From Escherichia phage I29: DNA of 64,000 bases. Below, piece by piece: positions 8,476 to 55,420 of the stretch. The notes beneath the pieces were generated by a model. The model saw only the letters and a program-made list of their open reading frames with translations, did not search any database and was not told where the DNA came from. The stretch's first letter is position 1. Each line of letters begins with the position of its first letter. Both the position numbers and the translations under genes were made by a program. The DNA lies in sequence record ON286975; one strand, given 5' to 3'.

Positions 8476-8476
8476 C

Positions 8477-9145
8477 TTAGATAGCTCCTGCGATAATCAA
8501 TGCCCCGTACCAAGTTAACCCGTTGTCGTAGGTTTCCAACTTGAAAATGTCTGTTGCACCAGCTGTAAATGTTAGGATAGGATCTCTTCCGTAGGACCAT
8601 TTAACATTACCAGGCCAATAGACTTTGTTGCCGCCAGAGGTCTGAGTAATGCATACGGTTATAGTTCTCGCCACCCCTTCAAGACCTTCTGTTTGATTTT
8701 CAAAAGAGATTGTGGTATTTGAAGTTAGTCGAACCTTAAAGGTATCCGCAACTTCAAGATCCATATCAAGCTGACCACCGATAGATCCGTAATCAACTAT
8801 TCTGCCAGAAGAAGTTGCAGCAAGCTCACCAAAAACAGACCAGGCGTTTGCAGACACACCCCCAGCACCCTCTACAGTGGAGTCTGGGAGGATTATTTTA
8901 GGATAATCCCCGTTCCACGTGTAGTAGCGCTTAGTTTCTGGATCATAAGCAAAGTCCTTCTTGCTCTTAAGATAACCACCCTCTGTGAAATAGACTATCT
9001 TAGTAATGCTAAGATCGTTGACAACATCGTCAATCTTAGCCTTTCTTGTCCCATCAGTCTGGTTGACAACCAAGAAGTCATCACTCAGGACTGTTTCTGC
9101 ATCTTCAAGATCTGGAATTGGTATTGTAGGATAAGCTACAGCCAT
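8477..9145 (-). CDS. short tail fiber / adaptor protein with conserved N-terminal anchor domain
   Basis: 222 aa; N-terminus (DDFLVVNQTDGTRKAKIDDVV ... FTEGGYLKSKKDFAY ... WNGDYP) aligns with the N-terminus of the 1266-aa fiber. Confidence 0.55.
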   Translation of the reverse strand: MAVAYPTIPIPDLEDAETVLSDDFLVVNQTDGTRKAKIDDVVNDLSITKIVYFTEGGYLKSKKDFAYDPETKRYYTWNGDYPKIILPDSTVEGAGGVSANAWSVFGELAATSSGRIVDYGSIGGQLDMDLEVADTFKVRLTSNTTISFENQTEGLEGVARTITVCITQTSGGNKVYWPGNVKWSYGRDPILTFTAGATDIFKLETYDNGLTWYGALIIAGAI

Positions 9146-9154
9146 GATTTCTCC

Positions 9155-9871
9155 TTAGTTAACATCAATAGCACGACCAGACTGGTTGGCAATAGCCTCA
9201 TCATTGGAGGTAGCAATAACACCAGAGTATTCGCGCTCATCTGGAGCAAGAGTCCAGGTATTGCGGTTAATGGTTTGTTCTGCCTCGGTCATCAGCAGAT
9301 CTTTATCCTGAGTCAACAGAGAGCCTACAGGGATAGGGTTTTCCATCTCAGGACCAGCATACTGGTTCCACCATGTGGCATCTCCGGTTCTAGGCAATCT
9401 GAAGTTGATCAGGTAGTACAGTTTATTGGCCCACTTAATCCAACCTTCATCATCACAGAGAGAGGTTGTCCCAGAATCAGGCTGTGGGTAGGTAAACTGA
9501 TCAAGACCTACGAAAGCCAGCCTTACAATCTCGTTCTCTTTGGTAACAACCTCAAAGAACGCTTGGTATGTTCTCGATCTTCGATCCATGGTAGACTGGA
9601 AGTTTACGATGTTTAGCACATCCGGCTCTTGTCTTGCCACTTCCATAATCTTGTTATCAAGAACAGTCTTCATGACCTTCTTACTGAGAAAGTCCATATA
9701 AGGGAAGCCAAACAACTCGTCAAAGTACCAGCTCCCCTTCCACGTATTAAACCTCATCCACAAGCGCTGGCGCAGACTTACCTGGTTTGAATCTATCAAC
9801 TCAAGACCTTTGTCTATCGCCAAATCGCCTGTCTGTGGGTCCATCAATATATCACTATAAAGCGTAGCCAT
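9155..9871 (-). CDS. hypothetical baseplate/tail protein
   Basis: 238-aa ORF between spike-like gene and fiber genes; position only. Confidence 0.4.
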   Translation of the reverse strand: MATLYSDILMDPQTGDLAIDKGLELIDSNQVSLRQRLWMRFNTWKGSWYFDELFGFPYMDFLSKKVMKTVLDNKIMEVARQEPDVLNIVNFQSTMDRRSRTYQAFFEVVTKENEIVRLAFVGLDQFTYPQPDSGTTSLCDDEGWIKWANKLYYLINFRLPRTGDATWWNQYAGPEMENPIPVGSLLTQDKDLLMTEAEQTINRNTWTLAPDEREYSGVIATSNDEAIANQSGRAIDVN

Positions 9872-9883
9872 GAAAGCCCTCTA

Positions 9884-10561
9884 TTAGTGCGGTCCACTTG
9901 TCTCGCCATCAGGGCAAGAGTGGGTATGACCTTTATATTCTGCATAGAATGAATCCAAATCCACACCAGCAGCAGTTATAATTCTACCAGATGGGTCTAT
10001 TGTGGCACCATTCATTCTGATATTTCCATCCACAGCAGCTCGCAAATTGGCAGCACCGTTAGTGAAAGAAAACTCCCCGCTGCTGTCGCACCGTAATGTC
10101 CCACCCGGTGTTTGAAGCTCAAAATCTCCAGAAGGTGTCAGTTTAAAATAGACCTTATCATTCCATAACTCTACGTTATCAGGATCGATCTGTAAAGCGT
10201 TTGAGTCTGAATGAACAGAGGTTATTGCCCACCCAGGAAACAGGCCGTGAGTTTGTTGATCGTCGTTATTGTTTTCATTTCTCTCTGAAAACTGCAATCC
10301 TACAACATCACCAGCTTTAATAGGAAGTGTTAACCTTGCCTTTCCACTGTTTGCAGACATCACTTGAATTGGAACGTCATAGATAAGAGGGTATCTCTCC
10401 ACATCTCCATCATCAAACGTGGTTTCAGCTATTGGCTGCACGGCTGCAGAAGGGATACTGTAGTCTACACTGACAACTCTGGCCCTGATACTGGTGTGGT
10501 AGTCCCTCATTATTTTTTCTATAAAGGATCTTACAGCAGCATCTTTCCTATTTATTGCCAT
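9884..10561 (-). CDS. baseplate central spike-like protein (gpV / Mu gp45-like)
   Basis: 225 aa; C-terminal HTHSCPDGETSGPH resembles the His-rich apex of gpV-type spikes; located downstream of tape measure and hub-like genes. Confidence 0.5.
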   Translation of the reverse strand: MAINRKDAAVRSFIEKIMRDYHTSIRARVVSVDYSIPSAAVQPIAETTFDDGDVERYPLIYDVPIQVMSANSGKARLTLPIKAGDVVGLQFSERNENNNDDQQTHGLFPGWAITSVHSDSNALQIDPDNVELWNDKVYFKLTPSGDFELQTPGGTLRCDSSGEFSFTNGAANLRAAVDGNIRMNGATIDPSGRIITAAGVDLDSFYAEYKGHTHSCPDGETSGPH

Positions 10562-11565
10562 TATACCTCCTCAGTTTTGTCAACAACCCCACCGACTGTT
10601 TCCCCAAGGCCAAGCTCTGTGATGTAATCACCTCCTTCTATGGTTCCTTTATGATGCACCGTGATCACCTTATAGAAGCCTGTATATTGCTTGCTTTTAA
10701 GATAAATAGTGGACTCTGGGAGGATAGCTCCGTTAAGGCATGTGGTTACAGTAAGGCCAACATCCTCTCTCGGGTTTTTCTTTTTCTTTTTAGATGTCGA
10801 ACCACCTTTGGCAGCAGCTTTAGCTTTTCGTTTTTTAGCAGGTTCTGGATTTTTAGGGGTAGGAGATCCGTGCATCCCAGACTCTGCACTTATTTCAAAC
10901 ACAGAGTCTTTGAACCTTTTTCCAACCTTGGTCCAATACAAAGCCCCATCCTGAACGCTAAATGTGGAGTTGGTCAGCCTTGCAAACCTGCGGAGGTTCT
11001 CTGCAGTGTTTCCAGAGAAAGCCATAGAGTATTGTAAAGTCTGGTTTCCAAAACCAACAACCCTACCTTTTGGCAAGTTCATATCCTTCAGTAGGTCATT
11101 AAGCACAGAGTTCAGAGGCGTGCCTTTCTGATAAGATCTTGTGCTTTGGCACTTAATGATGTTCTCAGTGCCATCCCCAAAGATGAACTTAGTTTTTCTG
11201 GTAGGGCCTTCCCATCTGTCTTCAACAAACTCCACAGTTCCGGAGAATATCAACTGGTTCTCATTATCATAGCCAGCTTCAAACATAACTGCAAGGGCAT
11301 CAGCCTGATGCATATCCAAGTAGTTAACTGTATCGTCAGACAGGTTGTAAACTGTCACATAACCTTTGTTTGGCTCTTTGGTATTGTCCTTTTGTATGTC
11401 AAACTCTATATTGGCAGCACCAGTGTCCGAGCTAACTTCATAAACTCCGGAATCACTCTCCCCTTTCTTTTCAACAGATTTTGGGATATTGGTTTTTGAT
11501 TTGCCGCCATGTTCTACAGGACGACCAAACAATAATCGCCATGTTCTACGTCTGTACTCTGCCAT
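10561..11565 (-). CDS. baseplate hub-like protein (hypothetical)
   Basis: 334-aa ORF overlapping the spike gene start; Lys-rich internal stretch; assignment by position. Confidence 0.4.
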   Translation of the reverse strand: MAEYRRRTWRLLFGRPVEHGGKSKTNIPKSVEKKGESDSGVYEVSSDTGAANIEFDIQKDNTKEPNKGYVTVYNLSDDTVNYLDMHQADALAVMFEAGYDNENQLIFSGTVEFVEDRWEGPTRKTKFIFGDGTENIIKCQSTRSYQKGTPLNSVLNDLLKDMNLPKGRVVGFGNQTLQYSMAFSGNTAENLRRFARLTNSTFSVQDGALYWTKVGKRFKDSVFEISAESGMHGSPTPKNPEPAKKRKAKAAAKGGSTSKKKKKNPREDVGLTVTTCLNGAILPESTIYLKSKQYTGFYKVITVHHKGTIEGGDYITELGLGETVGGVVDKTEEV

Positions 11566-28518: not shown

Positions 28519-28595
28519 TGGTCTCCACGGAGTGATTCGAACACTCGACCTCCTGATCCCAAATCAGGCGCTCTACCAAGCTGAGCTACGCGGAG
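28519..28595 (-). tRNA. tRNA-Pro (anticodon UGG)
   Basis: Hand-folded: acceptor CTCCGCG/CGTGGAG (C1-G72), anticodon stem CCTGA/TCAGG, loop TTTGGGA, T-arm GAGTG-TTCGAAT-CACTC, encoded CCA. Confidence 0.8.
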
Positions 28596-28606
28596 TATTT
28601 ATTATT

Positions 28607-28681
28607 TGGTGGCCCTGGGTGGAATTGAACCACCGTCTGGCGATTATGAGTCGCTTGCTTGAACCTTCCAGCTACAGGGCC
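28607..28681 (-). tRNA. tRNA-Met or Ile2 (anticodon CAU)
   Basis: Hand-folded: acceptor GGCCCTG/CAGGGCC, anticodon loop CTCATAA, T-arm GGTGG-TTCAATT-CCACC, encoded CCA. Confidence 0.75.
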
Positions 28682-28682
28682 A

Positions 28683-28758
28683 TGGTGCTGATGGCAGGAC
28701 TTGAACCTGCAACCTATTGATTACAAATCAATTGCACTACCAATTGTGCTACATCAGC
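28683..28758 (-). tRNA. tRNA-Thr (anticodon UGU)
   Basis: Hand-folded: acceptor GCTGATG/CATCAGC, D-stem GCAC/GTGC, anticodon stem ATTGA/TCAAT, loop TTTGTAA, T-arm GCAGG-TTCAAGT-CCTGC, CCA. Confidence 0.8.
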
Positions 28759-28763
28759 AAAAA

Positions 28764-28862
28764 GGTGCTAGGTGATGGAATCGAACCACCTATGTATTCA
28801 ACGACTACCTCGTCTATTTTCAGGATTAAAAATCCTCGCCCTTGCCAAAGGGCTTACCTAGC
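28764..28862 (-). ncRNA. atypical tRNA-like element (possible pseudo-tRNA or small stable RNA); anticodon not assignable
   Basis: 7/7 complementary acceptor ends GCTAGGT/ACCTAGC, D-arm GCCC-TTTGGCAA-GGGC and T-arm GGTGG-TTCGATT-CCATC, but the 46-nt middle has no canonical anticodon arm and contains a tight AGGATT-TTT-AATCCT hairpin; 3' end is ACC-T rather than CCA. Confidence 0.35.
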
Positions 28863-28960
28863 TCAGTATGTTGACCATGTTGCTAGTCGGCGATGACGAC
28901 TGTAACATTTGATAATCCGGTTCTGCTTCCGGCTTTCGCTTAATTACAAGGTCAACAATA

Positions 28961-29051
28961 TGGCTGAGGGTAATGGAATCGAACCATCATCAAGTCATCC
29001 TCAACGGGACGGTTTTCAAGACCGCTTGAGCACCATTGCTCCCTACCCTCA
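28961..29051 (-). tRNA. tRNA-Ser (anticodon UGA), type II with long variable arm
   Basis: Hand-folded: acceptor TGAGGGT/ACCCTCA, anticodon stem GCGGT/ACCGT, loop CTTGAAA, long variable arm, T-arm GATGG-TTCGATT-CCATT, discriminator G, CCA. Confidence 0.7.
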
Positions 29052-29165
29052 TTTATAAACAATACTGATAATGACACTGATTTTCGAGCAGTTAGTGACT
29101 AGTATAAACGACGATAAATATCAATGCCATTATCTGTATGATTTATGCATTTAAAACTATAAATT

Positions 29166-29252
29166 TGGTGGGGAGTGGTGGAGTCGAACCACCCGAGTCG
29201 CAATGACAATAGATTTACAGTCTACACCGCTACCCCTACGGGATAACTCCCC
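29166..29252 (-). tRNA. tRNA-Tyr (anticodon GUA), type II
   Basis: Acceptor GGGGAGT/ACTCCCC, anticodon loop CTGTAAA and variable arm TGTCATTGCGACTCG closely resemble bacterial tRNA-Tyr; T-arm GGTGG-TTCGACT-CCACC, CCA. Confidence 0.8.
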
Positions 29253-29256
29253 AATT

Positions 29257-29331
29257 TGGCACCCCGTACTGGACTCGAACCAGTGTCAACGGCTTAGAAG
29301 GCCGCTGCTTTATCCACTAAGCTAACAGGGC
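29257..29331 (-). tRNA. tRNA-Arg (anticodon UCU)
   Basis: D-arm TTAGCTTAGTGGATAAAGC, anticodon stem-loop GCGGC-CTTCTAA-GCCGT, T-arm ACTGG-TTCGAGT-CCAGT, CCA; resembles bacterial tRNA-Arg(UCU). Confidence 0.75.
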
Positions 29332-32266: not shown

Positions 32267-32821
32267 TTACTCCCTGCTGTCAATATCAAAACTCATTGCA
32301 ATACGGTATGCCTCTTCTAATGGTAAGAGTCTCCCCCACACATCCCAACCGACATCAAGCTGCCTGCCAAACAACTGTTGTGTGGTTCCGTGAGCATGAC
32401 CGAACAGTTGGACTGATCCGTGAGGCTTTCTGTTCCACTTTGCAAACTGGTAATGGCTCATACAGATCAAATTCTTGTTGTGGCGAAGCTCGTAATAATC
32501 TACAACCTCATGACCGAACTCTTTCATAATTCTGACAGTCGTCCTTGTGTCATGGTTGCCACGAACAAGAATAATATGTCCGTTCAACATATTTAGAATA
32601 TCTGGAAGTAAGTTGTTGATATTCTTATCATTAGTGCACGCAATATCTCCCAAGTGGAACACAGTGTCTGCAGGTGACACAACAGAGTTCCACTTGGCGA
32701 TGATTCCCGCATTCATACTGTCAAGATTGTGATCATACTGAGATCTGTGTTTTTGACATGAATCAAACTCCATGACCCGCTGGTGGAGAAAGTGTGTGTC
32801 GCTTGTTACAAAGTATTTCAT
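32267..32821 (-). CDS. calcineurin-like metallophosphoesterase (candidate RNA 2',3'-end phosphatase)
   Basis: ORF track 32267..32926; ATG at 32821 (MKYFVTSDTHF...) has a GAGGAA RBS. Motifs SDTHF, GDI, GNHD, GHAHG match binuclear metallophosphoesterases. Confidence 0.7.
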   Translation of the reverse strand: MKYFVTSDTHFLHQRVMEFDSCQKHRSQYDHNLDSMNAGIIAKWNSVVSPADTVFHLGDIACTNDKNINNLLPDILNMLNGHIILVRGNHDTRTTVRIMKEFGHEVVDYYELRHNKNLICMSHYQFAKWNRKPHGSVQLFGHAHGTTQQLFGRQLDVGWDVWGRLLPLEEAYRIAMSFDIDSRE

Positions 32822-32828
32822 ACATTCC

Positions 32829-33239
32829 TCATTTAAGTTTAATGCAGTTTTTAAGCTGGCGTTCCATACGATCCACAACCTTGTCTGGAACATCATGAAT
32901 GCTTTTATTACCGTGGCGGTTTTCAACCACGATCACGGTATAACTATACCCATGACTGATTGCCATGTCAACATATTCCTGCACATGTTTTTCTTTTGTA
33001 AACGTATTACTTACCACGATACGGTCGTATCCCATACGCATCATATCTTCTACGTTATCTTTGCACCATTTTGCTGCGAGTGTTACTTTACTTGCATCCC
33101 AGTTGTAATTGCCGTCATCGTCATACCAGAACATGTCGTTCTCAAAATGTGGATACAGACCCTCTAAAGATAGCGCATTTGCCAGTGTTGATTTGCCAGA
33201 CCCTGGTAGACCACGCACGATATATAGCATTTTAGACAT
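32829..33239 (-). CDS. P-loop kinase, polynucleotide kinase-like
   Basis: ORF track 32829..33296; ATG at 33239 (MSKMLYIVRGLPGSGKST...) has a GGAGGG RBS; Walker A GLPGSGKST at the N-terminus as in polynucleotide 5'-kinase domains; adjacent to phosphoesterase and RNA ligase-like genes. Confidence 0.55.
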   Translation of the reverse strand: MSKMLYIVRGLPGSGKSTLANALSLEGLYPHFENDMFWYDDDGNYNWDASKVTLAAKWCKDNVEDMMRMGYDRIVVSNTFTKEKHVQEYVDMAISHGYSYTVIVVENRHGNKSIHDVPDKVVDRMERQLKNCIKLK

Positions 33240-33339
33240 AGTGACCCTCCGTTTTAATTTCAACGGTAGTATACCTGACTGTTTTGTTAATTTCAAGTGT
33301 TGACACTAGGTTATTTGTGTGGCAGGATAGACTGACAAA

Positions 33340-34275
33340 ATGACAAATGAGGAACGTATGATGAAGTATTTTAATGCAGACGACCTAGTTGACAAAGGTC
33401 TTGTAACCAGTAGGTATTACCCAGATCTCGGGTTAAAGATCTATAAATATGCTAGAAAAGTATTTTACAACAATTTATGGCATTTGTCCCCTCGTTTACT
33501 GGAGTGCCGAGGCATTGTTGTAGGTAATGAAGGAAATGTTGTGGCATGGCCCTTCACAAAAGTGTTTAACTTGGGAGAAAACTCCACCAACCTGCCTGAC
33601 AATAAGCTTGTGACTGCGGTAGAGAAAAAGAACGGATTCCTTGGTGTGGTATCATCTCATAAAGGTGACCTATTGTTCTCAACAACCGGGTCTCTTGATT
33701 CTCCATATTGTAACCTTGCAAAGGAAACCATCCAAGAGCAATGTGGTAATTTAGATCTTATCAAGAAGGTTATGGGCAATGAAAACATGACATTCATGTT
33801 TGAAATTTGTCACCCTTCAGATCCGCATATTGTTCAAGAAGACCATGGCGCATATTTGATAGGTTGCAGATATAATGATTCTGGAATAATGCTACCAGAA
33901 GCAGCTTTAGATGGGATTGCCAAATACCTTGGTGCAAAACGTCCTCACACTGTGCGTGAAATCCCGTTCAGCTATGCAAAAGAATTAGCTGCAGAAACAA
34001 GGGGCGAAGGGTATATGATCCGTAAGCCTTACTACCCTTATGACCTGCAGCTGAAGATCAAGTCTCCATACTATTTGGCACGGAAGGCCGTAATGAGGGG
34101 TAAAGCTTGGAAGATTTGGGATGATGATATCTTTAAACGTATTGACGAAGAGTTTTATGGCATGGTAAACTTCATTCGTAGCAATTACACAGAAGATGTG
34201 TGGAACTGCCTCCTGGAGCAGGAACGCCGTGAGATACTTGATTGCTATTTTCACAACGAGGACTATATGCAATGA
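33340..34275 (+). CDS. RNA ligase-like nucleotidyltransferase
   Basis: 311 aa; covalent nucleotidyltransferase motif I-like VEKKNGFLG (KxNG); distinct from the DNA ligase at 36746; divergent from the kinase/phosphatase pair. Confidence 0.5.
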   Translation: MTNEERMMKYFNADDLVDKGLVTSRYYPDLGLKIYKYARKVFYNNLWHLSPRLLECRGIVVGNEGNVVAWPFTKVFNLGENSTNLPDNKLVTAVEKKNGFLGVVSSHKGDLLFSTTGSLDSPYCNLAKETIQEQCGNLDLIKKVMGNENMTFMFEICHPSDPHIVQEDHGAYLIGCRYNDSGIMLPEAALDGIAKYLGAKRPHTVREIPFSYAKELAAETRGEGYMIRKPYYPYDLQLKIKSPYYLARKAVMRGKAWKIWDDDIFKRIDEEFYGMVNFIRSNYTEDVWNCLLEQERREILDCYFHNEDYMQ

Positions 34276-34622
34276 AGAAGTTGATTGTGTGGCTAGATGA
34301 CTTGAGAGATCCGTCAAATTACGGAATCCAAGATGCTCTTTGGCTGAAGAACTCTTCTGAGTTCATGGATTTTATTAACGATAATAGAAAGCTCTACAGG
34401 CGCGTTTCTGAGTGGCATTTTGACAATGATCTAGGTGAAGTGCTTGAAGGGTACGACTGCTTCTCTGCGCTAGAGGAGAAACTTGTATTCGGAAAGCCAC
34501 CACTTATTGACAACGTGATTATTTTCGTGCATACTTCTAATCCATCGGCAGCTCGTAAATTTATGCTTGCTGCTGACTCATTCAAGAAGTTTGGAATAGA
34601 GATTAAACAAAACATCTACTGA
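34272..34622 (+). CDS. hypothetical protein, receiver (CheY-fold)-like residue pattern
   Basis: ORF track 34242..34622; ATG at 34272 overlaps the RNA ligase stop (ATGA). Pattern LIVWLDD ... HFDNDLG ... IFVHTSNP ... AARKF recalls the acidic/Thr/Lys positions of receiver domains (inference). Confidence 0.4.
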   Translation: MKKLIVWLDDLRDPSNYGIQDALWLKNSSEFMDFINDNRKLYRRVSEWHFDNDLGEVLEGYDCFSALEEKLVFGKPPLIDNVIIFVHTSNPSAARKFMLAADSFKKFGIEIKQNIY

Positions 34623-34630
34623 GGACACTT

Positions 34631-35392
34631 ATGCGACGACTGATTATTATCTCCGGTGCTGGTTTGAGCGCTGAATCTGGTATTCCCACTTTCCGATCTG
34701 GTAGCACTGCAATGTGGGAGAATTTCAGCATCGATGAGGTGTGCAACATCCACACCTTTGCCAAGAACTACTATAAGGTGCATGACTTTTACAATGCACG
34801 TCGTGTAGCTCTGGGCAGTGTTGATCCTAACCTTGCACATCTTCGGATCGCTGAGTGGTATTCCCGCTGGTCTGGTCGTGTGATCAACCTTACTACCAAT
34901 GTAGATGATTTGCTGGAGCGTGCTGGTGTAAAACATGAAGATATTTTACATGTCCACGGGTATTTGCCTGAAATCACCTACGAAGATGCTGAAGGTAATG
35001 ATGTAATTAAAAATATCGGATACACGGAGGTAGATACAGGCAAGTATACCTGGGTTAAGCCCAATGTAGTGTTCTTCGGTGAGGTTGCTCCTAAGTATAC
35101 AGACATGTATGACCTGTTGACATCTCTCACAAGCAATGATATGGTGATCCTGGTAGGTTGTTCTAACACAGTTATTAATTTTAACTGGGAATTGTTTCCT
35201 GCTACTTGTAAAGGCACAAAACTGCTGATTGTAAACAAGTATGATTCGCAGAGTGCAGATGGAAGTGGCATTTCACGTAGCGACCTTTATCAATATGAGG
35301 ATCGCGGGATCCCTGTATGGTTTAACGGTGCTGTTGACGCTTTCTCTGATAAAGCATTTATTGAAACTGTAGAAAACTTTATGGAACTTTAA
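34631..35392 (+). CDS. Sir2-family NAD-dependent deacylase/ADP-ribosyltransferase-like protein (zinc-ribbon-less)
   Basis: 253 aa; N-terminal GAGLSAESGIPTFRSG matches the Sir2 NAD-binding signature, with later HVHG; the canonical tetracysteine zinc module is not evident. Confidence 0.75.
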   Translation: MRRLIIISGAGLSAESGIPTFRSGSTAMWENFSIDEVCNIHTFAKNYYKVHDFYNARRVALGSVDPNLAHLRIAEWYSRWSGRVINLTTNVDDLLERAGVKHEDILHVHGYLPEITYEDAEGNDVIKNIGYTEVDTGKYTWVKPNVVFFGEVAPKYTDMYDLLTSLTSNDMVILVGCSNTVINFNWELFPATCKGTKLLIVNKYDSQSADGSGISRSDLYQYEDRGIPVWFNGAVDAFSDKAFIETVENFMEL

Positions 35393-35405
35393 AAGGAGAC
35401 CTTTA

Positions 35406-36119
35406 ATGCTGAATACTAAACTGATCGACAACCTGGAAAAACTGTCCCAGCCTGAAAACTACCTTTGGTCTGCCAACTGGGTGGAAAACTGGAACCGTGT
35501 GGCAGCTAAAGTGAAAAAATCATACACACCATTCGAATTACAGCTTAGCTTCATTGAGGAAGAGTTCAATGAGGTTTTGGAAGAGCTGGAGAAAGGTGAT
35601 GGTGGAGATCACCTGCTAAAAGAGGCCTGCGATCTTCACGTTGTCACAAGTTATGCAGCTTATCTTGTTAATGATAACCACGAAAAGTGGTCAAACCTGT
35701 TTGATAATCCGCGAGGTCTTAAGTTCAAGATCGGTGAGTTCTATGATACACTGATCGCTGCGAAAAACACATCCAAGCAAAGAGCGTCAGCTTACCGACT
35801 AGCGGAGTTATCAACAGCTTTGCTGTTCCAGCTTAGCGGGGATGTGTGTGGGATGATGCGGAAGGTTCTAAAATCTAATGACAGTAAGTTTGCACGGATC
35901 AACCATCTACGGCATTCACACGGTGCCAGTGCAGATATGCCTGCTGAACAACTCATCGAGTTGGAGATTAAAGATCTTGAGCGTCGTTTTGGTGGTCGCT
36001 ACGAAGGTTTCGTTGCTAAAGAGGAGTTCTACAACGGCAATAAAGTTATTATATTCCTTGACAGTAAAGGTAAGATTATGAAGCCTTCGAGCTTCAAGGA
36101 TGTAACAGAGTATATTTAA
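35406..36119 (+). CDS. hypothetical protein, possible MazG-like NTP pyrophosphohydrolase
   Basis: 237 aa; EEEFNEVLEELEKGD ... LLKEACDLH resembles the EExxE...D metal-binding motif of MazG-like enzymes (weak). Confidence 0.35.
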   Translation: MLNTKLIDNLEKLSQPENYLWSANWVENWNRVAAKVKKSYTPFELQLSFIEEEFNEVLEELEKGDGGDHLLKEACDLHVVTSYAAYLVNDNHEKWSNLFDNPRGLKFKIGEFYDTLIAAKNTSKQRASAYRLAELSTALLFQLSGDVCGMMRKVLKSNDSKFARINHLRHSHGASADMPAEQLIELEIKDLERRFGGRYEGFVAKEEFYNGNKVIIFLDSKGKIMKPSSFKDVTEYI

Positions 36120-36124
36120 CAACA

Positions 36125-36150
36125 TAGCCGGGATTACCCGGCTTTACTTA
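36125..36150 (+). terminator. hairpin terminator after 35406..36119
   Basis: AGCCGGG-ATTA-CCCGGCT 7-bp stem followed by TTTACTTATTAT. Confidence 0.5.
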
Positions 36151-36181
36151 TTATGGAAAGTATGCAGTGAGGTAGTCAGTT

Positions 36182-36490
36182 ATGTACAAGCATTCCAGAG
36201 ATCTTGAAAAAGATGCTGTGTTTGGCGACCAGATGAAGGAGCTGATCAAACTTATTGGTAGAATGGAAGATAAGTTTGACACTAAAATCTACATCGATAG
36301 CAAGGTCTTCAACCACAAAATATGGACAAATGTGTGTGTTGGGCTACATGGTGATAAAGATATTGTAAATTTGGTTGTAATAAAGTTCATAGTGTGGCAG
36401 AATAGGACTATACGTTATTACGACCCACACTTACTTGTTTATCCTATAAAAGACCTACTACAGAAGGAGGACTGCAATGCCGTTATTTAA
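36182..36490 (+). CDS. hypothetical protein
   Basis: 102-aa ORF. Confidence 0.4.
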   Translation: MYKHSRDLEKDAVFGDQMKELIKLIGRMEDKFDTKIYIDSKVFNHKIWTNVCVGLHGDKDIVNLVVIKFIVWQNRTIRYYDPHLLVYPIKDLLQKEDCNAVI

Positions 36491-36746
36491 TCTTGCTAAA
36501 CCTGTAGAAGCACATCAGTTTGACGGAAGCTCTTCATCAGTATCTGATCTGCAACGGTGGATTGATACAGGTGTGTTTACATCGTCACCTGTTCGGACCA
36601 GAGATCTTCGTCGCATGTGTGAGCTTGTCGAGCCTTTTGGTAACCTTGTCTTGTACCAGGGAGATTGGCTAGTTGACTTTATGGGAGACTGGTTGGTAAT
36701 GAGTAAAGAAGAGATGTTTAAAATTTTTAAGGAAGAGGCCGAGTAA
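36477..36746 (+). CDS. hypothetical protein
   Basis: 89-aa ORF overlapping neighbours at both ends. Confidence 0.4.
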   Translation: MPLFNLAKPVEAHQFDGSSSSVSDLQRWIDTGVFTSSPVRTRDLRRMCELVEPFGNLVLYQGDWLVDFMGDWLVMSKEEMFKIFKEEAE

Positions 36747-38029
36747 TGCATCAGATCAAAACAACACTGTACGCACTGAATAAAGATGGCAGCTACCAAC
36801 AGTGGAAAGTATTCACGGATGGTGATAAGGTTATCGTAGAGTTTGGCAAGCTTGATGGTAAACTGCAGTACAAAGAGACGGTATGCACACCTAAGAACGT
36901 AGGTCGTGCCAACGAGACTACAGCTGAGCAACAGGCCGAGCTTGAGGCTATCAGCAAGTGGGAAAAACAAGTCCGTCTGGGGTATGTTGAAAACATGGAA
37001 GATTGCGAGCAGGGTGTTGATCTTTTACCCATGCTGGTGCATGACTACCTGAAGCGTGGCAAGGCACTTAAATTACCTTGCTGGATCTTGCGTAAGTTAG
37101 ATGGCCTTCGTCTGCTTGTTGTTTTCCAAAATGGTGAGCCTAAATTTATTTCCCGTGGTAATAAGTCCTACCCTATTCAAGGAAAGCTTTTAGAGCAACT
37201 TCGTTCTTTCCATTCTACCACTGGGATTAAACAACTTGATGGGGAACTATACATTCATGGTCTTCCTTTGCAGAAAATAGTGTCTCTTGCTAAACGGTGG
37301 CGCACACAGGAAGAGATTCAGGCCGAGATCGATAAAGACTATGAGGCAGATAAAAAACGCCGTCATGCAGCAATTAAGGCAGGTTTATCAACATACAAAA
37401 ACTTCAACAAGGTAGATATTCCTGTCGATGTTGAGCCTGTTCGTGATGATTTGCGTTACGGTGGGTACTGTAGCTACGATCTGGAGTATCACATTTTTGA
37501 TATTCCTAGCGACAAGGTGTGGTGGGATCCAGAAACAGAGTCTGGACGCTGCAAGGATCTTATGGATGCAGAGGATACCGTTACCACTCTGATGCTTGAC
37601 CATATCAAGGTTGTTGACGCAGAGCTTGCGTACACAGTTGATCATTGCGAAGAATCTGTTGGTATATTCATGTCCGAAGGATATGAAGGTACTATCATGC
37701 GTAATTTCTGCGGTAAATACGAGTACGGTCAGCGAACATCTGAAGCATTGAAATGGAAAAAGTTCAACGACGCAGAGGTGAAAGTTATTGACGTTGAGAA
37801 AGATAAGAATGATGAAGGTGTTCTTATCTGTGTTGACAAGGAAGGTGTTATTGTTAAAATGAAGATGAAAGGCACGCACGAGGAGCGTAGCTATGACAGG
37901 ATGCAGGAAATGATCGGCAAGTTTGTCACCTTCAAATATCAATCAAGGACAGAAGACAACAACTACCAATTCCCTGTCGGTATCTGCGTCCGAAATGTTG
38001 ACCCAGACACTTGGGAGGTTCTGGAATGA
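36746..38029 (+). CDS. ATP-dependent DNA ligase
   Basis: 427 aa; motif I KLDGLR (KxDGxR) at about residue 118. Confidence 0.65.
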   Translation: MHQIKTTLYALNKDGSYQQWKVFTDGDKVIVEFGKLDGKLQYKETVCTPKNVGRANETTAEQQAELEAISKWEKQVRLGYVENMEDCEQGVDLLPMLVHDYLKRGKALKLPCWILRKLDGLRLLVVFQNGEPKFISRGNKSYPIQGKLLEQLRSFHSTTGIKQLDGELYIHGLPLQKIVSLAKRWRTQEEIQAEIDKDYEADKKRRHAAIKAGLSTYKNFNKVDIPVDVEPVRDDLRYGGYCSYDLEYHIFDIPSDKVWWDPETESGRCKDLMDAEDTVTTLMLDHIKVVDAELAYTVDHCEESVGIFMSEGYEGTIMRNFCGKYEYGQRTSEALKWKKFNDAEVKVIDVEKDKNDEGVLICVDKEGVIVKMKMKGTHEERSYDRMQEMIGKFVTFKYQSRTEDNNYQFPVGICVRNVDPDTWEVLE

Positions 38030-38903: not shown

Positions 38904-39368
38904 GTGGAAGACGGACGTTTAATGAAGTCTGAACGCAGGCTTATTGTGCAACTGATCCCAGAAACAGCTTGGTATAATAACCTACGAAACGCTGTGAAGA
39001 AGAGTGAGTGGGATAAGATCCGTAAGAAGTGCTACAGAGAAGCCAACTACACTTGTGAGGTGTGCGGAGGTAAAGGCAGCAAACATCCAGTGGAGTGTCA
39101 TGAACTTTACACTTTCGAAGAGGGAGTGATCCGGCTTGTCGGACTGATAGCGTTGTGCCCAGATTGTCACACATCTGTGCATCCTGGGTTAGCAAATATC
39201 CGTGGAAAGTATGCTCAGGCAGTTAATCAGTTGGCTAAGGTGAATAAGATCACCAAGGGTATGGCAGAGGCCTATTACCGAGACTGCTTTGCAGAGTGGC
39301 GTGAGCTTAGTAAAGTTCCAGAATGGAAGACTGACTTTTCGTGGATAGAAGGTTACCTTGATGGCTAA
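38904..39368 (+). CDS. HNH-like zinc-binding nuclease (putative)
   Basis: 154 aa; CEVCGG ... ECHE ... CPDCH...VH Cys/His pattern. Confidence 0.45.
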   Translation: MEDGRLMKSERRLIVQLIPETAWYNNLRNAVKKSEWDKIRKKCYREANYTCEVCGGKGSKHPVECHELYTFEEGVIRLVGLIALCPDCHTSVHPGLANIRGKYAQAVNQLAKVNKITKGMAEAYYRDCFAEWRELSKVPEWKTDFSWIEGYLDG

Positions 39369-52234: not shown

Positions 52235-54369
52235 AAGTTGTAAAACGGGACGGTAGAGAAGAGTTCTATAACGGAATTAAGGTGATCAAGGCGGCAGAGT
52301 CCGCCTTACTTGAGTCTGGACATACTGAAGAAGAAGCTTACCGGATCGCTTGTGCGGTTAATGAAGTTGTTGCTAACAATCTGCCAACCGACCAGTGCAC
52401 GATCTCTGTAAAAAATATCCATATCCTTGTTGAAGATGCTCTTATGGATATGGGTTTAAAATGTGCAGCCAGAGAATACATCCAGTATAGACAGACAAGA
52501 GATAATAACAGAGAGGCAGGTGGAAAACTGCTTGCAGATATTAGTGGCTTCTTGGATCGAACTTGTGATGAATTTACAAAAGAAAACGCAAATAAGCCCA
52601 CTAATCATGTACACACTCATCGTGACCTGCTTGCAGGCATCCTTAGCAAACACCTTGCATCAACACAGATCCTGCCAGACCGTGTCTCCGAAGAGCACAA
52701 TAAAGGCTTCATCCATGTGCATGATCTTGACTACTTGATCAGTCCGTTAACAAACTGTTGTTTGGTAAATTATCCAGATATGCTGGAAAACGGATTCAAC
52801 ATTGGTAACGCCCATGTCAGTAAGCCGAAGTCAATAGGGGTTGCAACAACAATCCTTAGCCAAATCTCCAGTGCGGTAGCTAGTGCTCAATATGGTGGTC
52901 AGACTATGAGCCATATTGATCATTATCTGGCACAGTATGCTGAAGCGACCTATGAGAAGAACCTTAAATTTTGCCAGGAACATTGGTTGCCAGATGCTGA
53001 GACCGTTGCAATGCAAATGACAGATAAAGACGTGTTTGACAGCATGCAGACTTTGCTCTATCAAATCAATACGTTAACCTCTGTCAACGGGCAAACTCCA
53101 TTCATCACATTAAGTTTAGGACTGGATACCTCGGTCTTTGGTAGAATGATTACCAAAAATTACTTGAAAGTCCACAAAATGGGTCTTGGTGAAGAACGGA
53201 TCACACCTGTGTTCCCTAAAGTGCTGTTCTTCCTAGAAGAGGGTGTCAACATGAGCCCTAGAGATCCTAACTATGATTTGAAACGATTAGCTCTGGAATG
53301 CTGTGCAGAACGTATCTATCCTGACTTCGTATCTGTACCACTAAATAGAAAAGTGACAGGCTCGACAGATGGCAAAGTAACGAGCATGGGTTGCCGGAGT
53401 TTTCTTAGCAAATACAATGACTTGGAAACAGGCGAGGAGAAATACCTTGGCAGATTTAACTTAGGCGTTGTTAGCCTTAACCTGCCAATGATTGCGGCAA
53501 AAGCTAAGACGGAAGGTGTTGATTTCTTTGCAGTTCTTGACGAATACTTAGATCTTGCATACGAGGCTCACCTTGTAAGGGTTAACCGTCTAAAAGGAAC
53601 AAAGGCAGGGCAGAACCCCATCATGTGGTGTGAAGGCGCTCTTGCTCGCCTGGATCCTGAAGAAAGTATTGATAAACTCTTCTATGACGGGTACGCTTCC
53701 ATCAGCATTGGGTACATTGGTGTGTATGAAACCTGTCAGATTTTGGGCAGAGAAGGTGACAAGGCTTTAGCTCTTGGAATCCTTCAGCACATGAGAGATG
53801 CTTGTGAGCGATACAAGAAGGAAAGTAGACTAGCATTTAGCTTGTACGGCACTCCTTCTGAGAGTCTATGCTATAAAGCTGCAACCTGTCTGGATCGTGA
53901 ATATCCAGAAGTGTTAAAGCACGAGCATGAATATCTCACCAACAGTTTCCATCAGCCAGTATGGATCAATAGCTCTCCTTTTGATAAGTGGGAGTATGAG
54001 GAAGGTTTTGCTATGATCTCCTCCGGTGGCAACATCGGATACGTAGAGACACCTAACCTGAAAAACAACCTTGATGCTTTAGAGGCTCTTGTTGACTTCG
54101 GGTATAAACACATTATGTATTTTGGTATTAACCAACCTGTGGATAAATGTCTCAAGTGTGGTTTCTCTGGTGAGTTCAGTGCAACAGCTAAAGGGTTCTG
54201 CTGCCCTGCGTGCGGATGCCACGATGAACAATATATCTCAGTGATCCGAAGAGTGTCTGGCTATCTCTCCAGCCCGAACAGTAGGCCGTATAACACAGGT
54301 AAACAAGCAGAGGTTATCGAACGTGTTAAACATGTTGGGAATGTAGACTGTTGTCCGTTGAGTAAATAA
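52231..54369 (+). CDS. nrdD: anaerobic ribonucleoside-triphosphate reductase
   Basis: 712 aa; N-terminal ATP-cone, C-terminal Zn-ribbon CLKCGFSG...CCPACGCHD and glycyl-radical-type RVSGY. Confidence 0.85.
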   Translation: MKVVKRDGREEFYNGIKVIKAAESALLESGHTEEEAYRIACAVNEVVANNLPTDQCTISVKNIHILVEDALMDMGLKCAAREYIQYRQTRDNNREAGGKLLADISGFLDRTCDEFTKENANKPTNHVHTHRDLLAGILSKHLASTQILPDRVSEEHNKGFIHVHDLDYLISPLTNCCLVNYPDMLENGFNIGNAHVSKPKSIGVATTILSQISSAVASAQYGGQTMSHIDHYLAQYAEATYEKNLKFCQEHWLPDAETVAMQMTDKDVFDSMQTLLYQINTLTSVNGQTPFITLSLGLDTSVFGRMITKNYLKVHKMGLGEERITPVFPKVLFFLEEGVNMSPRDPNYDLKRLALECCAERIYPDFVSVPLNRKVTGSTDGKVTSMGCRSFLSKYNDLETGEEKYLGRFNLGVVSLNLPMIAAKAKTEGVDFFAVLDEYLDLAYEAHLVRVNRLKGTKAGQNPIMWCEGALARLDPEESIDKLFYDGYASISIGYIGVYETCQILGREGDKALALGILQHMRDACERYKKESRLAFSLYGTPSESLCYKAATCLDREYPEVLKHEHEYLTNSFHQPVWINSSPFDKWEYEEGFAMISSGGNIGYVETPNLKNNLDALEALVDFGYKHIMYFGINQPVDKCLKCGFSGEFSATAKGFCCPACGCHDEQYISVIRRVSGYLSSPNSRPYNTGKQAEVIERVKHVGNVDCCPLSK

Positions 54370-54380
54370 GGAAAGAGGTG

Positions 54381-54419
54381 GAGAGCAAGGATGCTCTCAT
54401 TTTTTTTTTTTTTGTTTTT
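54381..54419 (+). terminator. strong intrinsic terminator after nrdD
   Basis: GAGAGCA-AGGA-TGCTCTC 7-bp stem followed by a run of about 20 T. Confidence 0.75.
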
Positions 54420-54420
54420 A

Positions 54421-54449
54421 TTGACTTCTATTCCTCTTTTCTATAGTAT
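54421..54449 (+). promoter_or_regulatory. sigma70-like promoter (TTGACT-17-TAGTAT)
   Basis: TTGACT 54421-54426, TAGTAT 54444-54449, upstream of 54488 gene. Confidence 0.4.
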
Positions 54450-54487
54450 GCAATATAAAGTGAATAGCGGAAGGGTCTGGTCTGGTA

Positions 54488-55420
54488 ATGAGAAGACTAA
54501 CAACCGAAGAGTTTATAGAAAAAGCTCAGACTATACATGGTGACAAATATGATTACTTCAAAGTGGAGTATAAAAACAACAAGACACCTGTGTGTATAAT
54601 TTGTCCTGAGCACGGTGAGTTCTGGCAAACCCCTGTGGCACATGCTTTCAAGAATCATGGTTGTCCAAGGTGTGGTGGGTCAGCGAAAAAGAACACTGAA
54701 GAGTTCATAAAAGAGGCTATGGCTGTTCATGGGGACAAGTACGATTACTCATTAGTCAAATATGCGAACATGAGAACGCCTGTAAAAATTGTTTGCCCTG
54801 AACACGGTGTGTTTGAACAATACCCTGAAAACCACTTATACCAAAGAAACGGCTGCCCAGAGTGCTATGACTTAAGACGTGGGCAAAGTCAAGCGTTAAC
54901 CCATAAGGAGCATGCTGCAATTATCCACAAAGCCAACCCAGACATAGAAATATTAGAGAAAATTGCCAATGATAACACAAAAGTGCAATGTAGGTGCAAA
55001 ATTTGTGGGTATAAGTGGTCTGCTAAACCTAATAACCTAAAAAGTGGTCGTGGCTGCTGTAAATGCGCACAAAATGGATTCTTATCTCATGAGTACGGTA
55101 AACTCTACATTATGGTTGATGACTTAGAAGTGCCAACACTTATGAAAATCGGTGTATGCGTTAAAATGCACAGGAGGAAAAATGAGGTGCTTAACAGTGC
55201 TCGTAAATCTGGCGCAGGTGTCCACACTCTTCACGTAGTAAAAACATGGAGCGGATCAACTCAAAACATGGTAGATTTAGAAAAATCTGTGCATAAGGCC
55301 TTGAGCAAGTATAAAATAAACTTTCCTGTAAAATTTGACGGTAGCACTGAGTTTTTCTACTACAGGCCTGAAGTGTTTGACACGGTAGAAGAGGTATACA
55401 AGAAGATTTGTGGTAAATGA
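54488..55420 (+). CDS. homing-endonuclease-like protein (repeated Zn-finger modules plus T5orf172/GIY-YIG-like C-terminal domain)
   Basis: 310 aa; three repeats of HGDKYDY..V.Y.N..TPV.I.CPEHG.F.Q.P..H....GCP.C; C-terminal GKLYIMVDD...KIGVCVK...VHTLHVV...GSTEFF. Inserted between nrdD and nrdG with own terminator/promoter. Confidence 0.45.
   Translation: MRRLTTEEFIEKAQTIHGDKYDYFKVEYKNNKTPVCIICPEHGEFWQTPVAHAFKNHGCPRCGGSAKKNTEEFIKEAMAVHGDKYDYSLVKYANMRTPVKIVCPEHGVFEQYPENHLYQRNGCPECYDLRRGQSQALTHKEHAAIIHKANPDIEILEKIANDNTKVQCRCKICGYKWSAKPNNLKSGRGCCKCAQNGFLSHEYGKLYIMVDDLEVPTLMKIGVCVKMHRRKNEVLNSARKSGAGVHTLHVVKTWSGSTQNMVDLEKSVHKALSKYKINFPVKFDGSTEFFYYRPEVFDTVEEVYKKICGK

Follow-up and report, generated by a model that had tools for sequence, protein, structure and literature searches.

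The 64,000-nucleotide stretch of DNA from Escherichia phage I29 analysed here (sequence record ON286975; hereafter the window) carries at 34631..35392, on the + strand, a gene whose product is almost certainly a sirtuin (Sir2). By its sequence and predicted fold, this protein is a canonical class III, CobB/SIRT5-like sirtuin from a phage-specific clade in which the cysteine ligands for zinc have been lost throughout, with the sheet of the small domain retained in the model. Its gene is the third of a tight co-directional unit that also encodes an RNA ligase, a cREC protein (cyclic-phosphate processing receiver domain) and a MazG-like pyrophosphohydrolase. We tentatively suggest, after Iyer et al. 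(2022), that the sirtuin would serve as the step consuming oxidized nicotinamide adenine dinucleotide (NAD+) in a phage tRNA-repair pathway directed against host anticodon nucleases, acting in the manner of KptA; this is the most likely single mechanism, although our confidence in it falls short of even.

A class III sirtuin without zinc ligands

The open reading frame (ORF) starts with ATG and encodes 253 aa, and a Shine-Dalgarno sequence, GAGGA, lies 6 nt 5' of the start codon, overlapping the stop codon of the gene before it. The protein product matches Pfam SIR2 (PF02146; E=6.9e-28, 98.2 bits against a cut-off of 24) over profile positions 1-178 of 180, and PHROG 2162, 'Sir2', with E=1.5e-108; its best sequence matches in the PDB are E. 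coli CobB (1s5p, 3e-21), SIRT5 and Sir2Af1. A preliminary description of the gene, made from the sequence without database searches, had pointed to a Sir2 NAD-binding signature and an HG motif, and both are borne out, the former being GAGLSAESGIPTFR at residues 9-22 and the latter residues 109-110. The catalytic and NAD-binding motifs present are G9-A-G11, S16, F21-R22, N90, D92, H109-G110, F149-G-E151 (FGE), G176-x-S178 and N202. The same elements, with FGE in the form F148-F149-x-E151, are invariant over 64-120 clade members, as are Y54 and R57, and the sole exception among the Sir2 NAD motifs is xQNxD, in which the Gln before the Asn has become Thr89. With its catalytic residues intact, the enzyme is apparently competent.

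An AlphaFold2 (AF2) model built on a 64-sequence alignment (predicted local distance difference test, pLDDT, 89.2; predicted template modelling score, pTM, 0.88) has a Rossmann fold with an inserted small domain and can be superposed on solved sirtuins. When the model was searched against the PDB with Foldseek, the top 50 matches were all sirtuins, with CobB first (E=1.4e-18, TM 0.75/0.83), followed by Sir2Af1 and SIRT5, and these leading matches place the fold in class III. The Tyr-x-x-Arg pair of that class is retained as Y54/R57 within FYNARR, which is the same in CobB and aligns to FYHYRR of SIRT5. Thus the two checks proposed in the preliminary description, alignment to SIR2 profiles and structure prediction, found the catalytic residues in place and a Sir2 fold, the opposite of the outcomes that it had named as fatal to the assignment.

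Compared with CobB and SIRT5 (PDB 1s5p, 6rxj, 3riy), to which the phage Sir2 is only 24-27% identical, the protein shares the Rossmann and small-domain fold, the GAGxSxxSGIxxFR, N, D, HG, FGE and GxS motifs and the Tyr-x-x-Arg pair, but differs in having no zinc ligands, in the Thr that replaces the Gln of TQNID, in a Cys38 that replaces Ala, and in being phage-borne within an RNA-repair operon. PHROG 2162 is a phage-specific clade derived from class III sirtuins. Orthology to CobB itself is ruled out by the NCBIfam models NF040867 (104 bits versus 320) and NF001753 (122.6 versus 243), which score at or below about half their cut-offs.

Other assignments were also considered and rejected. The preliminary description had compared the protein with the SIR2 NADase effectors of bacterial defence systems, a comparison that did not hold up: PADLOC gave no match at E<=0.01, SIR2_2 reached 13.2 bits against a cut-off of 24.5, and the fold is of class III. 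The defence enzymes (ThsA, DSR1/2, SIR2-HerA, SPARSA; SIR2_2) do belong to the same superfamily and likewise have no Cys4 zinc ribbon; unlike them, the phage protein has no sensor or effector partner domains and is encoded by a lytic phage. Homology to KptA/Tpt1, which have the ADP-ribosyltransferase fold (PF01885), is not seen, only sirtuin families and folds matching the phage protein. Nor does the protein group with SirTM (class M), a Macro domain being found in none of the neighbours scanned, either in the window or in the other lineages.

The only cysteines of the phage Sir2 are C38, C177 and C193. None falls between HG and FGE, where sirtuins carry CxxC...CxxC and where the aligned stretch of E. 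coli CobB has C...CxCC; residues 111-142 are free of cysteine, and the two CxxC pairs expected of a structural Zn2+ site are absent. In a survey of 120 clade representatives of at least 46% identity, no conserved Cys column was found at positions 111-142, a lone Cys occurring at position 142 in 47 of them, and the zinc cysteines are also missing from such distant members as Vibrio phage nt-1, Yersinia phage fHe-Yen9-03 and Escherichia phage SHEFM2K. The preliminary description had the protein 'lacking the zinc-ribbon module', which is right as regards the four ligands but not as regards the sheet. Outright deletion of the module is ruled out by the spacer from HG to K-P-x-V-V-F-F-G-E, which at 32 aa is roughly as long as that of CobB, and by three strands confidently predicted in the AF2 model (110-118, 124-128 and 142-146; pLDDT of the block 94-96). 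The alignments and the model therefore indicate that the cysteine ligands were lost across the whole clade and the small-domain sheet was kept. The conserved aromatic residues Y131 and W141, with G130, probably substitute for the metal as a small hydrophobic core. A loose precedent is provided by one in-silico paper on zinc-cysteine-free SIR2 proteins of acetic acid bacteria; the Sir2La preprint, checked as a precedent for zinc-less canonical sirtuins, is silent on the point.

Three further traits mark the clade. The Gln of TQN(I/V)D is replaced throughout by Thr, Ala or Ser. The invariant Cys38 aligns to an Ala in 'EDVATP' of CobB and 'QDLATP' of SIRT5, which we take to be CobB A76 and SIRT5 A86 (each in its own residue numbering), lining the acyl pocket. 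Finally, the proteins are acidic, with a median isoelectric point (pI) of 5.14 (range 4.58-6.05, n=119).

The sirtuin gene in an RNA-repair module

The preliminary description placed the gene next to RNA repair genes, and so it is: an Rnl1-type RNA ligase, cREC, a kinase and a metallophosphoesterase adjoin it. The features of this part of the window are as follows.

28519..29331, - strand: tRNA cluster for Pro, Met/Ile, Thr, Lys-UUU, Ser, Tyr and Arg-UCU (ARAGORN, Rfam, GenBank annotation)
32267..32821, - strand: calcineurin-like metallophosphoesterase, candidate 2',3'-end-healing phosphoesterase (Pfam Metallophos_2 1.8e-6, Metallophos 5.9e-6; annotated phosphoesterase)
32829..33239, - strand: polynucleotide 5'-kinase of the P-loop AAA_33 type (Pfam AAA_33 1.7e-10; annotated polynucleotide kinase)
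33340..34275 (annotated start 33358), + strand: T4 Rnl1-type RNA ligase (Pfam RNA_lig_T4_1 1.1e-14; annotated RNA ligase)
34272..34622, + strand: cREC protein, 116 aa (Pfam cREC_REC PF20274 4.3e-14; phrog_1479 8e-34)
34631..35392, + strand: sirtuin bas56_0207, 253 aa (Pfam SIR2, PHROG 2162, PDB, AF2; annotated in MZ501048)
35406..36119, + strand: MazG-like nucleotide pyrophosphohydrolase, 237 aa (phrog_671 'nucleotide pyrophosphohydrolase' 1.9e-21; no Pfam match)
36126..36143, seen on both strands: GC-rich hairpin of 7 bp (6 GC), directly 3' of the MazG-like ORF (terminator-like scan)
36746..38029, + strand: ATP-dependent DNA ligase (Pfam DNA_ligase_A_M, OB_2)

The ATG of cREC overlaps the stop codon of Rnl1 (ATGA), 8 nt separate the cREC stop from the Sir2 start, and 13 nt separate the Sir2 stop from the start of the MazG-like gene, which has the ribosome-binding site AAGGAG. 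Rnl1, cREC, Sir2 and MazG thus form one tight unit, their co-transcription being read from this layout, and the hairpin at 36126-36143 is probably the terminator that closes it. The kinase and metallophosphoesterase genes run divergently from the unit. A sigma-70 promoter scan of the module gave a count of 19, not above the shuffled expectation of 14.1 +/- 3.8.

This arrangement corresponds to configuration 2 of the 'sirtuin-centred RNA-repair systems' (Escherichia phage V5/Proteus phage Mydo; Iyer et al., 2022, PMC9503650, section 3.7.3), which comprises a sirtuin, cREC, a T4-like RNA ligase, a MazG-superfamily pyrophosphatase and a nucleotide kinase, to which a calcineurin-like phosphoesterase may be added; the same authors place the MazG-like protein in the MazG superfamily. 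The phage group (Vequintavirus) is the same, all six genes lie within 32267-36119, and the window is a member of the configuration that differs in nothing substantive.

Relatives and prior description

Positions 34000-36200 of the window are 100% identical to Escherichia phage AlexBoehm (Bas56, MZ501048.1), an rV5-like Vequintavirus, in whose record the gene, bas56_0207, is named 'sirtuin domain NAD-dependent deacetylase'. A further 119 near-identical records bring the total to 120, and a tblastn search with the sirtuin protein found matches in 1011 deposited phage records, among them T5 (gene T5.102, called Sir2 in the T5 RefSeq record), Seunavirus PVP-SE1, Phapecoctavirus, KVP40-like Vibrio phages and several jumbo phages. 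The preliminary description called the function unknown; this is true of experiment, but the near-identical records are annotated and a counter-defence role in tRNA repair has been proposed (PMC9503650). The sirtuin gene, its family and its neighbourhood are therefore already catalogued, and a mechanistic prediction for the same neighbourhood is already published. That paper makes no mention of the loss of the zinc cysteines with the sheet kept, the loss of the Gln of TQN(I/V)D, Cys38, the acidic pI or the lineages in which sirtuin and module are uncoupled, and these are the small additions of the present analysis.

The sirtuin encoded in three records labelled 'Campylobacter phage C12/C14/C15' (MG065635, MG065653, MG065654) is 99-100% identical in protein sequence to that of E. 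coli Vequintaviruses, and the DNA of these records is about 96% identical to theirs over 2.2 kb. Probably these are phages of E. coli, or their host is mislabelled.

Gene context across phage lineages

The surroundings of the sirtuin gene were compared in a census of 64 loci (given below by L numbers), using probe proteins together with Pfam and PHROG scans. In Vequintavirinae-like loci, Sir2 occurs with Rnl1, the kinase, the metallophosphoesterase, the MazG-like protein, the DNA ligase and usually cREC, and in Seunavirus PVP-SE1 the order is phosphoesterase...Rnl1-cREC-kinase-Sir2-DNA ligase. In the T5-like loci, which number about 35, and in Erwinia phage KEY, Sir2 is accompanied by DUF7415 proteins and a HAD_SAK_2 phosphatase ('Swiss Army Knife RNA repair'), and no ligase lies close by. 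Among jumbo phages, Sir2 is followed in SHEFM2K by a Nudt16-like Nudix protein and after it cREC, and in fHe-Yen9-03 by a Nudix-cREC fusion. An ATP-dependent DNA ligase is found near Sir2 both in the Vequintavirinae-like loci and in two other lineages of the census. The case for a functional link to Sir2 is strongest here, in that its association with enzymes predicted to process RNA ends or ADP-ribose phosphate recurs with non-homologous partners.

Genes of NAD salvage also occur beside the sirtuin. NAMPT lies about 470 nt upstream of Sir2 in L063 (6057-7487), with no ORF detected between the two; NadM and NAMPT are just upstream in the Yersinia jumbo phage fHe-Yen9-03 (L068 792-3966); and in PVP-SE1 (L004 1-2476) NAMPT and phosphoribosyl pyrophosphate (PRPP) synthetase are about 6 kb upstream. 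As far as the AlexBoehm record was inspected, neither NAMPT nor any other NAD-salvage gene is annotated near the module. The presence of such genes in some lineages is consistent with real NAD consumption by the sirtuin.

Several uncharacterised neighbours recur. In Phapecoctavirus-type phages, the gene just before the sirtuin always encodes a 157-aa phrog_9509 protein with no Pfam match, where other lineages have cREC or HAD_SAK (L005 7522-7992 and L036 ~7471-8007; also L038, L039, L042 and L043); this protein is a candidate lineage-specific Sir2 partner. In T5, the tandem paralogues T5.106 and T5.107 (L002 9651-10478), with two DUF7415 repeats each, follow 3' of the HAD_SAK_2 gene downstream of Sir2 and are kept across T5-like loci. 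A phrog_11748 protein, again with no Pfam match, is encoded upstream of Sir2 both in T5 (T5.100, L002 7340-7717, with the small T5.101 between) and in Erwinia phage KEY (key_050, L003 7652-8005, which overlaps the Sir2 start).

A possible role in tRNA repair

A description of this neighbourhood, with phage V5 taken as the prototype, was given by Iyer, Burroughs, Anantharaman and Aravind (2022, Viruses 14:1977; PMC9503650). They proposed that the sirtuin is a KptA/Tpt1-like, NAD-dependent remover of RNA 2'-phosphate that contributes to counter-defence tRNA repair, and that the partner enzymes would open a cyclic phosphate or process the ADP-ribose cyclic phosphate (ADPr>P) by-product. In such a pathway, cutting of a tRNA by a host anticodon nuclease would leave 2',3'-cyclic phosphate and 5'-OH ends, of which the former would be opened by cREC and/or the metallophosphoesterase and the latter phosphorylated by the kinase, and the break would then be sealed by Rnl1. 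The 2'-phosphate left behind would be removed by the sirtuin, which would pass the ADP-ribose of NAD+ to this phosphate and so yield nicotinamide and ADP-ribose 1'',2''-cyclic phosphate, and the latter would be linearised by cREC and cleaved by the MazG or Nudix partner.

Such chemistry is plausible by analogy. The sirtuin reaction begins with attack of a substrate oxygen on C1' of the nicotinamide ribose, after which the 2'-OH, activated by the His, attacks the electrophilic centre; Tpt1 runs both steps of this type with a 2'-phosphate oxygen and the 2''-OH of ADP-ribose. Tyr54 and Arg57, whose counterparts in class III sirtuins bind anionic acyl groups, could hold the phosphate, and this anion-binding pair would be a plausible starting point for phosphate recognition. 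The likeness to KptA/Tpt1 lies in the proposed activity, NAD+-dependent removal of RNA 2'-phosphate as ADP-ribose 1'',2''-cyclic phosphate, which is hypothetical for the sirtuin, and in the company kept, both being found with RNA ligases and cyclic phosphodiesterases (PMC9503650). Unlike the Rossmann-type sirtuin, KptA/Tpt1 have the ADP-ribosyltransferase fold, and there is no sequence or structural homology between them. A displacement test anchored on cREC, which looked for KptA in the slot of Sir2, found it in 0 of 10 viral-contig loci, too few to be informative, 8 of the 10 being from lineages already sampled.

The module can also be set beside the Pnkp/Rnl1 system of T4. Here too an Rnl1-type ligase and a 5'-kinase are present, beside the sirtuin, and the presumed purpose is the reversal of anticodon-nuclease damage; unlike T4 Pnkp, however, the kinase has no fused HAD phosphatase, end healing being split among the metallophosphoesterase and cREC, and the T4 pathway has no sirtuin or MazG component.

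A number of observations weigh against the assignment to tRNA repair. The FGE loop, the class III Y-x-x-R and all the other marks of a conventional lysine deacylase are present in the phage Sir2, so that nothing in its sequence calls for an RNA substrate, and the acidic pI of the clade is unexpected in an enzyme that must grip RNA. A kinase, a metallophosphoesterase and Rnl1 could complete T4-style repair with no 2'-phosphate step. The linkage of Sir2 to the repair module is not universal: in several other lineages only NAMPT, DNA ligase or uncharacterised proteins stand beside Sir2, with no recognisable repair neighbour, and the Phapecoctavirus-like contig L077 (IMGVR_UViG_3300014004_000001) has at 5971-10981 a cluster of cREC, MazG-like, metallophosphoesterase and ATP-dependent 'DNA' ligase genes that includes neither Sir2 nor Rnl1 and lies about 32 kb from the sirtuin gene of the same contig, which is paired with a phrog_9509 protein. 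The separation suggests that the module may serve the putative ATP-dependent ligase, whose substrate may be a DNA nick or RNA. Further, the 'RNA repair' labels of cREC and HAD_SAK are computational predictions from the same research group, and our literature search turned up no experiments on the sirtuins of phages, including T5 and Vequintavirus, nor any on whether sirtuins and Tpt1 are equivalent.

Were the KptA-like model correct, sirtuin chemistry would extend from protein deacylation to RNA repair, and classic phages, T5 and rV5 among them, would be equipped with an NAD-dependent counter-defence to immunity that cuts tRNA, which would connect NAD-depleting defences with phage NAD salvage and with the repair of tRNA. 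The more specific proposition that the phage enzyme is a genuine RNA 2'-phosphotransferase, a non-homologous replacement for Tpt1/KptA in a yeast- or plant-style pathway with zinc loss, Gln-to-Thr and Cys38 as adaptations to the new substrate, we regard as doubtful. It would make this the first sirtuin with a nucleic-acid phosphate rather than an acyl-lysine as its physiological acceptor, and its confirmation would validate the 2022 prediction, not originate it.

Alternative functions

The main rival to tRNA repair is that the protein is an ordinary NAD+-dependent lysine deacylase, a CobB-like deacetylase or desuccinylase of phage or host proteins, which might keep the catalytic lysines of the RNA or DNA ligase or translation factors acyl-free, or reset the host acylome. 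Its nearest relatives in sequence and fold, CobB, Sir2Af1 and SIRT5, are deacylases; all the catalytic residues and the Tyr/Arg pair that binds the acyl carboxylate are invariant; an acidic protein would suit basic, lysine-rich substrates; and Sir2 repeatedly adjoins ligases, whose active sites are lysine-AMP. CobB itself activates acetyl-CoA synthetase by deacetylating a catalytic lysine. However, the low scores against the CobB equivalog and subfamily models argue that the protein is no CobB orthologue, the clade-wide changes in the pocket and at the NAD position (Gln to Thr/Ala/Ser; Cys38) point to altered handling of the substrate, no target is known, and deacylation leaves unexplained the conserved coupling to cREC, Nudix or MazG, and HAD proteins, which resemble processors of a by-product. 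We consider this reading rather unlikely; if it did prove true, the protein would be a naturally zinc-free canonical sirtuin, useful for learning what the zinc module is for.

It is less probable that the sirtuin is an enzyme of NAD+/ADP-ribose metabolites that cleaves NAD+, a signal derived from NAD, or a nucleic-acid end that is NAD-capped or ADP-ribosylated, with cREC, Nudix or MazG, and HAD proteins degrading the product to AMP and ribose phosphate, for nucleotide salvage or to destroy immune signals based on ADP-ribose, and RNA ligation being incidental. This would account for the partners common across lineages being cREC and a pyrophosphatase (MazG here, the Nudt16-like Nudix in jumbo phages) and not a ligase, and for the position of Sir2 amid genes of nucleotide metabolism and NAD salvage (Nrd, PhoH, NAMPT, NadM) in T5, KEY, L063 and the jumbo phages. 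Yet canonical sirtuins have negligible free NADase activity when no acceptor is present, the features of defence-type SIR2 proteins are absent, a phage that also salvages NAD would gain little by depleting it, and the translational coupling of Rnl1, cREC and Sir2 in the window points to RNA ends.

The least probable of these proposals, and one we think distinctly improbable, is that the protein works like SirTM, as a mono-ADP-ribosyltransferase acting on a host protein or nucleic acid in the service of takeover: SirTM and SIRT4/6 do ADP-ribosylate proteins, and phages commonly ADP-ribosylate host machinery, as with Alt, ModA and ModB of T4 (PMC9503650), but the neighbours scanned include neither a Macro domain nor any other partner that would reverse the modification, the best matches belong to class III deacylases and not to class M, and there is no signature of virion packaging or of an early gene.

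Other features of the window

The tRNA cluster lies about 3 kb upstream of the repair module, as measured from the metallophosphoesterase gene at 32267, and may be a complementary way of coping with tRNA cleavage; we mention it as context only. Within the cluster, the gene for tRNA-Lys (UUU; loop UUUUUAA) at 28766-28862 on the - strand, about 3.4 kb from the module, has a 26-nt insertion at the position of the variable arm, the inner GACGA/UCGUU of which can pair. It is called as a 99-nt 'tRNA-???' by ARAGORN, as a tRNA of 35.5 bits by Rfam and as a 97-nt tRNA-Lys in GenBank. A long variable arm is unusual for a Lys tRNA, and tRNA-Lys is a classic target of anticodon nucleases. At 28961-29051 on the - strand ARAGORN finds a tRNA-Ser (UGA) that is unannotated in MZ501048, for which Rfam gives a sub-threshold tRNA-Sec (37.9 bits against 47).

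Further downstream, a putative HNH homing endonuclease is encoded at 38904-39368 on the + strand, between the endolysin and the downstream genes; it is so annotated in MZ501048 and has no Pfam match at E<=0.01. The class III anaerobic ribonucleotide reductase at about 52446-54613 (108829-110996 of the AlexBoehm record) is given in MZ501048 as a two-piece join, which suggests an intron or other intervening element.

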